From an uncultured Anaerolineae bacterium (GTDB lineage Bacteria > Chloroflexota > Anaerolineae > VGOG01), in contig CAZRSI010000003.1 of the NCBI GenBank assembly GCA_964602575.1, positions 1-34,370 of the forward strand: DNA of 34,370 nucleotides, read 5' to 3'. Every line of letters begins with the position of its first letter. The stretch's first letter is position 1. A program made the translations under genes and the position numbers. The notes below the pieces were generated by a model that ran no database searches, was not told where the DNA came from, and saw only the letters and a list, made by a program, of their open reading frames with translations. Shown in pieces: positions 175 to 34,370 of this stretch.

Positions 175-384
175 TTGATTTTACCCATAAATGTTCAGAC
201 CTTCTTGATAAAGCGGAACTCTTGCTCGATTCCCCAGCGGCGGTTTGAGAGGACGAGGCTATATTGCAACGCTGACATGGATCCTGCTGAGATCAGGGAG
301 TACTGTCGGATAGACAAGGCGGGGCGGAGCTTAGAGCCTATCCGAAAAATGCTCACGGCGGACCTTAGTCCGCCGCTGGACTAA
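175..384 (+). pseudogene. Possible relic of the 3' part of a Mg-chelatase-like (ComM/YifB family) gene; not an intact gene
   Basis: About 30 aa of the 69-aa ORF (RRFERTRLYCNADMDPAEIREYCRIDKAGRSL) resemble the conserved 'NA.M....R.YC.LD..G..LL' stretch near the C-terminus of ComM/YifB proteins as I recall it. The upstream roughly 400 aa and the downstream 'LSARAY.RILKVARTIADL' part are both missing. The ORF runs into the palindromic element at 336-419. Confidence 0.25.
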
Positions 385-419
385 GGCCCAGCGGGAGCAA
401 AAAGACTTTTCGGATAGGC
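336..419. repeat. Composite palindromic element, copy 1: a 13-bp closing inverted repeat around two adjacent hairpins
   Basis: GCCTATCCGAAAA (336-348) is the perfect reverse complement of TTTTCGGATAGGC (407-419). Inside lie hairpin 1, cggcggac-ctta-gtccgccg (356-375), and hairpin 2, cgctggac-taag-gcccagcg (374-393). GCTC (351-354) pairs with GAGC (395-398). Related copies sit at 20451-20494 and 33743-33887. Confidence 0.75.
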
Positions 420-435
420 GCTTTAGGCCATAAAT

Positions 436-20419: not shown

Positions 20420-20450
20420 CGGCATTGTTGCGCCACAGCTCACCTGCTCT

Positions 20451-20494
20451 CGCTGGACCCTAGTCCAGCGGCCTCAGCGGACTAGGATCTGCTG
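20451..20494. repeat. Twin-hairpin element, copy 2 (diverged)
   Basis: The first hairpin is CGCTGGAC-ccta-GTCCAGCG (20451-20470). The second is CAGCGGA-ctagg-TCTGCTG (20475-20494, one G-U). Flanking GCTCTC (20445-20450) pairs with GAGAGC (20494-20499). The core GGACCyTAGTCC / GGACTAGG is as in copies 1 and 3. Confidence 0.65.
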
Positions 20495-20547
20495 AGAGCA
20501 TAAGATGAGCATACCAAAACCCACCAAATAAAAAGGAGGTTCTCGAA

Positions 20548-33696: not shown

Positions 33697-33742
33697 AACT
33701 TCTTCACTTCCAGGCTATCCACAGCTATTTGTCTACCAGTAT

Positions 33743-33887
33743 TTATTCACCTTATGCTCGCGGCGGACCTTAGTCCGCCGCTCCAGTGGCGACGACCAGT
33801 GCTGAAAACTGTGAAACTTGCACCTGGCCAGGGACACAACGAGGGCCCAGGCCGCTGGACTAAGGTCCAGCGGGAGCAGGTGAATAA
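33743..33887. repeat. Twin-hairpin element, copy 3, with a 74-bp insertion between the two hairpins
   Basis: The closing stem is TTATTCACCT (33743-33752) paired with AGGTGAATAA (33878-33887). GCTC (33756-33759) pairs with GAGC (33874-33877). Hairpin 1 is cggcggac-ctta-gtccgccg and hairpin 2 is gctggac-taag-gtccagc. GCCGCT occurs at both 33777-33782 and 33851-33856, flanking 68 nt absent from copy 1. Confidence 0.75.
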
Positions 33888-33893
33888 TTACGT

Positions 33894-34370
33894 CTACCAA
33901 GGGCGTTGAAGCATCACTTCCGGGGATTCATGTATCTCCATGGCCTGCCATTGCCACCCATTTTCCTTCGCTATTACCCATCCAAGTCCCGGGAAAGGCA
34001 GGTGGGAGCCAAAGACCAGCGCGTTCTCGTCAGCCGCCCGTTTGAGTAGTTGCCGCCGGGTCCTGACCATCTCGTCAGGATATCGTGCTCTATCCCAGGA
34101 ACAAAGCAATTCCGGGTAGGCGATGTGGAGCAGGTGGTGGACGGCATCGCCGATGTGAAGCAGCGTTTCGCCTGCTGAGGTGATGCGCAATGCGCTATGA
34201 CCAGCACTGTGACCACGCCCCCAAATAGCTTGAAAGCCAGGTATGAATTCCGTATCAAGCGCGACCGGTTCGACACGCTCTCTGATGGCCGGGACGACAT
34301 ATCGGATAAAATATTCCGGAGCGTTTTCATTTTCCGCAAGCACCTTTTCCGCCGACCACAGGTCCCACAT
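33894..34370 (-). CDS. MBL-fold metallo-hydrolase, C-terminal part (the gene runs off the window edge)
   Basis: GRGHSAGHSAL and HIGDAVHH fit the later metal-binding motifs of the metallo-beta-lactamase fold. The HxHxDH motif would lie beyond position 34370. Confidence 0.65.
   Translation of the reverse strand: MWDLWSAEKVLAENENAPEYFIRYVVPAIRERVEPVALDTEFIPGFQAIWGRGHSAGHSALRITSAGETLLHIGDAVHHLLHIAYPELLCSWDRARYPDEMVRTRRQLLKRAADENALVFGSHLPFPGLGWVIAKENGWQWQAMEIHESPEVMLQRPW

Follow-up and report, generated by a model that had tools for sequence, protein, structure and literature searches.

Twin-hairpin repeats of an Anaerolineae genome: a probable REP-type doublet within MITE shells of two transposon families

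The window described here is the whole 34,370-nucleotide stretch analysed (contig CAZRSI010000003.1, assembly GCA_964602575.1, from an uncultured Anaerolineae bacterium), and corresponds to contig C3 of the host assembly G000 (2.85 Mb, 403 contigs, 57.7% G+C, 91% complete). Three copies of a twin-hairpin repeat had been proposed by a first-pass annotation, and re-reading of the sequence located all three, at 351-399 (copy 1), 20445-20499 (copy 2), and 33755-33878 (copy 3). The complete element at copy 1 spans 334-422 (~89 bp), contains no open reading frame, and is framed by the terminal inverted repeats of an IS5-type shell, the 16-nt GAGCCTATCCGAAAAA on the plus strand at 334-349, and TTTTCGGATAGGCGCT, the consensus plus one base, on the minus strand at 407-422. 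Read directly, the target-site duplication TTA lies at 331-333 on the left and at 423-425 on the right; the match on the right depends on allowing for a 1-nt indel within the repeat, the triplet at the fixed offset being TTT. The core between these ends (350-399, plus strand) shows compensatory stem changes, and consists of the tetranucleotide tag GCTC (351-354), hairpin A (CGGCGGAC-CTTA-GTCCGCCG, 356-375), hairpin B (CGCTGGAC-TAAG-GCCCAGCG, 374-393), and GAGC (395-398).

To the left of copy 1, positions 175-333 hold only a short ComM/YifB-type protein fragment (..FERTRLYCNADMDPAEIREYCRIDKAGRSL), with a weak match to positions 17-47 of Mg_chelatase_C (E = 0.003). Since the comM fragment ends exactly at the left edge of the element, copy 1 marks a deletion or rearrangement junction. 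On the other side, a perfect sigma-70 consensus promoter of the TetR gene (TTGACA-17-TATAAT, 436-464) starts 10 nt past the right target duplication. In general, members of the family do not sit beside promoters (1-2 of 58 ends). Comparison of positions 1-275 of sequence L120 (ENA ERZ27248285 k141_77329) with window positions 250-425 showed that the TetR gene, the promoter, and the right half of the element are shared. The left arm (TAA/GTACCTATCCAAAAACCTGCTCAAGGTGGGCC..; slashes here and below mark element edges) and the left flank of L120 differ from those of copy 1, with the junction inside the hairpin, and L120 is either an assembly chimera or the product of recombination, in another strain, between MITE copies.

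The element at copy 3 spans 33739-33891, has ends GTA(T/A)TTATTCACC, and is flanked by the exact 8-bp target-site duplication GTCTACCA at 33731-33738 and 33892-33899. Its left terminal inverted repeat GTATTTATTCACC (33739-33751, plus strand), which is of the IS66/ISBst12 type, includes the closing stem TTATTCACCT reported previously; the right one (33879-33891, minus strand) reads GGTGAATAATTAC on the plus strand, and the end pair is GTATTTATTCACC and GTAATTATTCACC. The core (33755-33878, plus strand) contains hairpin A at 33761-33780 and hairpin B at 33853-33872, separated by ~74 nt. This separation had been taken for an insertion splitting the copy, but it is instead a spacer typical of the subfamily, conserved in about nine G000 copies and in the genomes G007, G008, and G013. 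The spacer (33781-33852 in copy 3, also present in C107, C231, C58, L052, L046, and L055) is conserved across genera, and contains a third hairpin, which has apparently undergone a compensatory change (CCAGCGC..GCGCTTGG versus CCAGTGC..GCACCTGG) around a conserved loop, AAAACYGTGAAAC. Copy 2 is a compact, decayed IS66-type element at ~20427-20514 on the plus strand, with the right end GAGCATAAGATGAGCATAC, a core at 20445-20500, and hairpins at 20451-20470 and 20475-20494; no target duplication was recognizable at its edges. The same compact subfamily was found at C30:417-476 and at L047 of G013.

The family proved to be real and far larger than the three copies first reported. The 12-nt hairpin centre GGACYYTAGTCC, allowing at most one mismatch, matched five times in the window versus 0.46 expected (0 of 100 shuffles reached five), and 146 times in the whole assembly, many of these copies being situated at contig ends. 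The motif preceded by GCTC-N5 was detected in 8 of the 11 genera of the host's family and in one further family within the class, with reversed-pattern controls giving 0-1 matches. The copies had all been described as intergenic; this holds for 116 of 127 modules (91%, versus 18% of random positions), and so not strictly for all. Both orientations relative to genes occur, with no strand bias. Modules at C23:14375-14446, C50:13112-13141, and C25:13120 lie within open frames that are very long in the rough gene calls used (900-1200 codons), and represent either in-frame insertions or merged genes.

The core shared by these copies reads TGCTC-N-hairpin ... hairpin-N-GAGCA, with TGCTC-R-CGGC-hairpin on one side and TGCTC-C-CGCT-hairpin on the other, and its polarity is identical in both types of shell. 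The inner stem and loop, GGAC-CTTA-GTCC, are almost invariant across modules. Each hairpin stem has 8 bp, of which the outer four pairs are variable with compensation, as seen in 14 fully complementary outer-stem variants. Paired cells amounted to 91.7%, compared with 80.1% in shuffles (0 of 500), and double-sided stem changes numbered 85 versus 31.5 expected. Single-strand folding bore out the earlier description of a two-hairpin core with alternative folds, giving either a long hairpin or two local hairpins plus an outer stem: the plus strand folds as one long hairpin (-27.4 kcal/mol, z = -5.9), and the minus strand as a three-way junction (-29.5 kcal/mol, z = -8.4).

One of the two readings offered by the first-pass annotation was that of a structured non-coding RNA, in which the closing stem of a three-way junction covaries between copies. 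The compensatory changes in the hairpin stems, and the three-way junction formed by the minus strand of copy 1, speak for such an RNA. Against it, stem mismatches comprised 37 GT and 28 AC; with the two about equally frequent, they give no hint of the wobble tolerance expected of an RNA. The copies occur in either orientation relative to genes, and Rfam gave no match at any copy, whether at the gathering threshold or at E values up to 1. Closing-stem complementarity specific to each locus was also rejected, as mismatched partners paired about as well as true ones (mean stem 5.45 versus 6.2). A function as an intrinsic terminator was considered as well and rejected, given a weak match on the minus strand of copy 1 only and the lack of orientation bias; that terminator-like features are confined to this one strand also counts against a structured RNA. 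The identity of the closing stems, described next, makes the RNA reading scarcely credible.

Closing stems of 13 bp in copy 1 and 10 bp in copy 3 had been reported, and both are as described. However, the 13-bp stem is not a sequence peculiar to its locus: its left arm corresponds to the terminal inverted repeat at 334-349, its right arm to that at 407-422, and the same sequence surrounds dozens of copies. The left part of the compact-type consensus reads TWA/G[ATC][GA]CCTATCCGAAAA-A-TGCTC-R-CGGC-GGACCTTAGTCC-GCCG-CT-, and is followed by the right part, -GGACTAAGGTCC-AGCGGGAGCA-AAAAGAC-TTTTCGGATAGGC-N-C/TWA. Among the G000 shells, the left and right triplets agree in every one of the 15 pairs in which each is TTA or TAA (P = 0 in 5000 permutations of partners). 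Because an extended inverted repeat would give opposite triplets, the TWA triplets are direct repeats. The base that precedes the triplet is C at 28 of 46 and 48 of 60 ends, versus 29% C genome-wide, and this excess indicates the target C/TWA/G. A further 33 modules, which form a group with long arms, have ends of the same kind, TWA/GTACAG..TTCGTTCCG... There is also a second family with IS5-type ends and the TGCTC tag, carrying another twin hairpin (GGGGCGTCCTCGCCCC / GGCGAGGACGCC), at C2:16268-16348, C22:6624, C69:6163-6245, C78:1917-1997, and other G000 sites.

The origin of these ends was indicated by related genomes. The relatives G009 and G010 carry insertion sequences 0.9-1.04 kb long that end in GAGCCTATCCTAAAAT, and GAGCCTATCCGAAAAA matches the GAGCCTATCCTAAAAT of L014, L017, and L019 over 16 nt, except for T in place of G at position 11. 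The full-length IS5-family element at L019:744-1783 is flanked by TTA on both sides, and its sole transposase matches NF033580 (NCBIfam transpos_IS5_3) at 230.9 bits, with a cut-off of 110, in addition to the Pfam families DUF4096 and DDE_Tnp_1/_1_2. Beyond the 16-nt ends, the small element shares nothing with the insertion sequence. The matching ends, the TTA duplication, and the IS5-family transposase in relatives thus identify copy 1 as a MITE derived from an IS5-family insertion sequence.

A corresponding set of observations was made for the other shell. The 8-bp direct repeats at the GTA... ends are exact in C3, C37 (TCGACTTG), and C58 (CTTTTTCC), agree at 7 of 8 positions in C5, and recur at copies of matching type in G013 and G008 (L045, L046, and L055). 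Full-length, single-ORF insertion sequences of the IS66 family (~1.6 kb) in relatives have ends GTAACTGCTCAGSC, to which the MITE ends GTAACTACTCAGCC are close, and the IS66 family is characterized by an 8-bp duplication (PMC3281130, Table 2). On sequence grounds, copies 3 and 2 are classified as IS66/ISBst12-like MITEs, with copy 2 being decayed and compact. One IS66-type element was observed at the identical site in two genera (L053 in G007:C85 and L054 in G008:C150), where it duplicates TCCTCCAC(G/A)A, the reverse complement of the ribosome-binding site directly 5' of a start codon.

The closing stems are, in other words, the inverted ends of two unrelated transposon families, and this explains why they differ in sequence and yet maintain complementarity. 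Each family has its own target duplication, and this, too, counts against the first of the earlier readings, covariation in a three-way-junction RNA.

The second earlier reading, in which a REP/BIME-like element lands inside pre-existing hairpin loops, fared better in part. The core is REP/BIME-like, but its surrounding stems, far from being pre-existing host hairpins, are the ends of MITEs and move along with it. Insertion into hairpin loops does occur, though in the reverse direction: IS5-type members were found in the core's own C-TTA-G loop in at least six cases (GGACC/TTA/GTAC..), and this loop is itself the preferred IS5-type target. At C118:7972-8097, a ~45-nt element with ends GGATTGTGTCAAATGA / ..TCGTTTGATACAATAT is inserted at the TA of a module loop, and constitutes a third kind of hairpin-loop insertion. 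In the chimeric copy C374, an IS66 end immediately adjoins an IS5 end and precedes the core. Such chimeras demonstrate recombination and nesting between shell types.

The REP-like character of the core emerged from comparison with tyrosine transposase genes of related bacteria. Among 29 Y1 transposase loci of the host's family, a single one stood out, L067 of G013, which encodes a 185-aa protein matching NF047646 (NCBIfam REP-associated tyrosine transposase, RAYT) at 82.1 bits (cut-off 80), and is flanked by GCTC-N-stem-GGACGCTAGTYC-stem modules. Orthologues with 44-61% identity, mostly one per genome, are present in ten further genomes belonging to several Anaerolineae families, and the RAYT clade with GCTC-tagged hairpins comprises genes of G013, G007, G001, G084, G133, G083, G142, G134, G121, G091, and G151. 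The hairpin association was observed at 10 of 11 loci of the clade. The flanking arrays consist of GC-rich hairpins with (T)GCTC before and GAGC(A/G) after them, frequently arranged as tandem twin-hairpin units, and the hairpin sequences vary by lineage. Tagged hairpins reach a density of 1.42/kb at RAYT loci versus 0.06/kb at IS5/IS66 loci, 0.23/kb at IS200-type loci, and 0.073/kb genome-wide in G000; the enrichment is ~20-fold.

The units adjacent to the RAYT gene of G007 align end to end with the cores of the window, through GCTCCCGCTGGAC..GTCCAGC and GTCC[A/G]CC[T/G]TGAGC[A/G]. In both G007 and G013, one REP type is found at the RAYT gene and also within IS66-type shells. The genome G040 carries bare, dispersed doublets devoid of a shell, and its locus L043 is a natural hybrid of both hairpin loop types. 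In G142 and G121, the hairpins flanking the RAYT gene are in direct, not inverted, orientation. REPs are defined by a conserved terminal tetranucleotide, the described superfamilies having GTAG or CGTC (PMC3733652), and REPINs as REP pairs in inverted orientation that make use of a RAYT (PMC3337134). By these definitions, the core is a REP doublet with the tag GCTC in place of GTAG/CGTC. Clusters of at least four modules without shells, alternating or in tandem in a BIME-like manner, were noted at the start of contig C359 (1-190) and at L050 of G013, and possibly adjoin a RAYT gene that was not assembled.

The hairpins might, alternatively, be the palindromic filler of plain MITEs, kept complementary by DNA-level template switching, with a likeness to RAYT-associated repeats that arises from MITE-rich surroundings. 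More than 90% of the G000 modules do lie inside IS-type shells, the stem mismatches have no wobble bias, and other hairpin types also occur in shells, namely GGGGCGTCCTCGCCCC in IS5-type and GGAGTTGYACTCC in IS66-type elements (the latter in G010). The lack of a cognate RAYT in G000 and in several module-rich genomes would also fit this explanation. However, the RAYT-adjacent hairpins lack IS-type ends and form tandem arrays; their association spans several families with hairpins that differ by lineage, at 10 of 11 loci and with the ~20-fold enrichment noted above; and the cores of the window align with the RAYT-adjacent units at both ends. An origin as mere filler is considered unlikely.

The missing partners were sought in several ways. 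In G000, no cognate RAYT was found at E <= 1e-8, the best tblastn match being 25% identical (in C199), and the cognate gene is also absent from several module-rich genomes. The search for a REP-associated transposase envisaged in the first-pass annotation yielded a RAYT with homologous GCTC-tagged hairpins in relatives, and two other RAYT-like genes in G000. The first of these (C199:1-900; 103 bits to NF047646) is flanked by a small repeat of its own, GAGGCTTTAGCC, with four copies around the gene and only three elsewhere in the genome. The second (C59:1884-2624) contains a duplicated internal low-complexity insert (..PRHSRESSSPTDAIPSDEPTQSRKQPSGNASPL, twice). A PLD-nuclease/SNF2-helicase gene adjoins the C59 gene, and the C199 gene is likewise beside such a gene. 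Both were rejected as the mobilizing enzyme, as neither is flanked by a module and C199 is associated with the other repeat.

These two genes bear on a stricter form of the second earlier reading, according to which a RAYT-driven REPIN is still active in G000 and prefers the loops of pre-existing palindromes, whether empty MITE shells or host hairpins. In its favour, G000 does contain RAYT-like genes, and the core behaves as a discrete unit, its boundary falling, in either type of shell, exactly where the 16-nt IS end stops on the inner side. Against it, no empty shells were found in G000 (no end pair is closer than 45 nt); no RAYT of the assembly is flanked by a module; and the target duplications lie outside the shells, not beside the core. 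Ongoing REPIN activity of this kind is regarded as very improbable.

Searches for the parent insertion sequences were also negative. The G000 assembly, which is 91% complete and breaks at repeats, gave no PF13340/PF13586 match for an IS5-type parent, and an IS66-type parent was not found in its 403 contigs. The DDE_Tnp_1 matches of G000 were rejected as parents, since they belong to an unrelated IS4-like element with ends CATATGCGTCAACTTAAG. Searches for empty sites had no matches in metagenome contigs, and no presence/absence polymorphism was found; all other assemblies with identical neighbour proteins carry the elements. With an assembly that holds neither the parent insertion sequences nor a cognate RAYT, mobilization in G000 can only be inferred.

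Taken together, the observations are best explained by a composite mobile element, in which a REP doublet sits inside MITE shells of two families and the closing stems are transposon ends; the probability of this reading is put at roughly 0.75. The inner part is a doublet of GCTC-tagged REP-type palindromes, of the unit type that flanks a single-copy RAYT in related Anaerolineae. The outer part consists of IS5-family ends GAGCCTATCCGAAAA with a 3-bp TWA duplication at C/TWA/G in copy 1, and of IS66/ISBst12-like ends (GTAAC/GTAT...) with an 8-bp duplication in copies 3 and 2. The copies would have multiplied as MITEs, through IS5- and IS66-family transposases supplied in trans, which presumably bind the ~13-16-bp ends and treat the REP doublet as a passenger. 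The predicted action of RAYT on the hairpins as single-stranded DNA would be limited to RAYT-bearing genomes. The copies thus most likely spread as cargo of MITE shells. Capture may have proceeded in either direction, with the REP doublet taken up by, or inserted into, MITEs, or with MITE cores gathering beside RAYT genes.

A bolder scenario can be put forward only tentatively, and is thought more likely wrong than right. The REP doublet may have escaped its own transposase, been packaged more than once in IS5 and IS66 MITEs, and now be spreading in genomes that have lost the RAYT, its loop having grown to match the carrier's target C-TTA-G and the family nesting into itself. If true, this would be a documented case of a non-autonomous element, itself a parasite on two further parasites, changing the machinery that mobilizes it. 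Each component is already known; the combination, in which a REP doublet whose loop matches the carrier's target sits in MITEs from two DDE families, seems not to have been reported before. A non-exhaustive literature search returned no paper on MITEs in Anaerolineae, and no report of REP doublets inside MITEs.

REPs and REPINs are usually held separate from MITEs, the former depending on HUH tyrosine transposases and single-stranded hairpins, and the latter on DDE transposases and double-stranded ends. In the present case, a single hairpin doublet occurs within one bacterial class in three forms: bare beside a RAYT gene, in an IS5-type shell, and in an IS66-type shell. The family thereby offers a natural system for studying how non-autonomous elements swap their mobilizing enzyme, and why REP hairpins outlast the loss of the RAYT. 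In practical terms, such repeats break MAG assemblies, many copies being at contig ends, mark rearrangement junctions (such as the one where the comM relic abuts copy 1 from the left), and can be mistaken for structured RNAs. Specialists in mobile DNA should find the results moderately interesting.

The closest known systems are those of REP, REPIN, and BIME repeats with their RAYTs (Nunvar 2010; Bertels and Rainey 2011, PMC3116915; PMC3337134). Like these, the doublets are short GC-rich palindromes with a conserved tetranucleotide tag, arranged as inverted pairs whose linkers vary; they are extragenic and present in high numbers, flank a single-copy RAYT in relatives with arrays on either side, and occur in mosaic or tandem clusters, for example at C359:1-190 and L050. 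Unlike these, they carry the tag GCTC rather than GTAG or CGTC (PMC3733652), most G000 copies lie within DDE-transposon ends and target duplications, the G000 assembly lacks a cognate RAYT, and the flanking hairpins of G142 and G121 are direct.

IS5-derived MITEs are resembled in that the 16-nt ends equal those of 1-kb IS5-family elements but for one base, that the duplication is a 3-bp TTA or TAA, and that the elements are ~89 bp long, ORF-less, and present in dozens of copies between genes. In the IS5 family, the IS1031/IS427-type subgroups (ISfinder) produce 2-4-bp duplications of the TNA type and have GAG ends, and eukaryotic PIF/Harbinger elements have a target preference resembling the palindromic C-TWA-G. 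The interior, unlike that of IS5-derived MITEs, is a REP doublet and not a remnant of the insertion sequence. MITEs of the IS66-family, ISBst12-like single-ORF elements are matched by the GTAA-type ends, the 8-bp duplication (PMC3281130), and the full-length relatives with ends GTAACTGCTCAGSC; in contrast to such MITEs, the elements contain the same REP doublet as the IS5-type ones, and their parent is missing from the assembly.

Some insertion sequences use REPs as targets, and IS1397 inserts in REP loops. Targeting of REP sequences by insertion sequences has been described (Tobes and Pareja 2006, as cited in PMC3733652). The entry of IS5-type members into the hairpin loop, in at least six cases, is similar; unlike the REP-targeting insertion sequences, the inserters here carry that hairpin themselves, and the loop is the exact 5-bp target.
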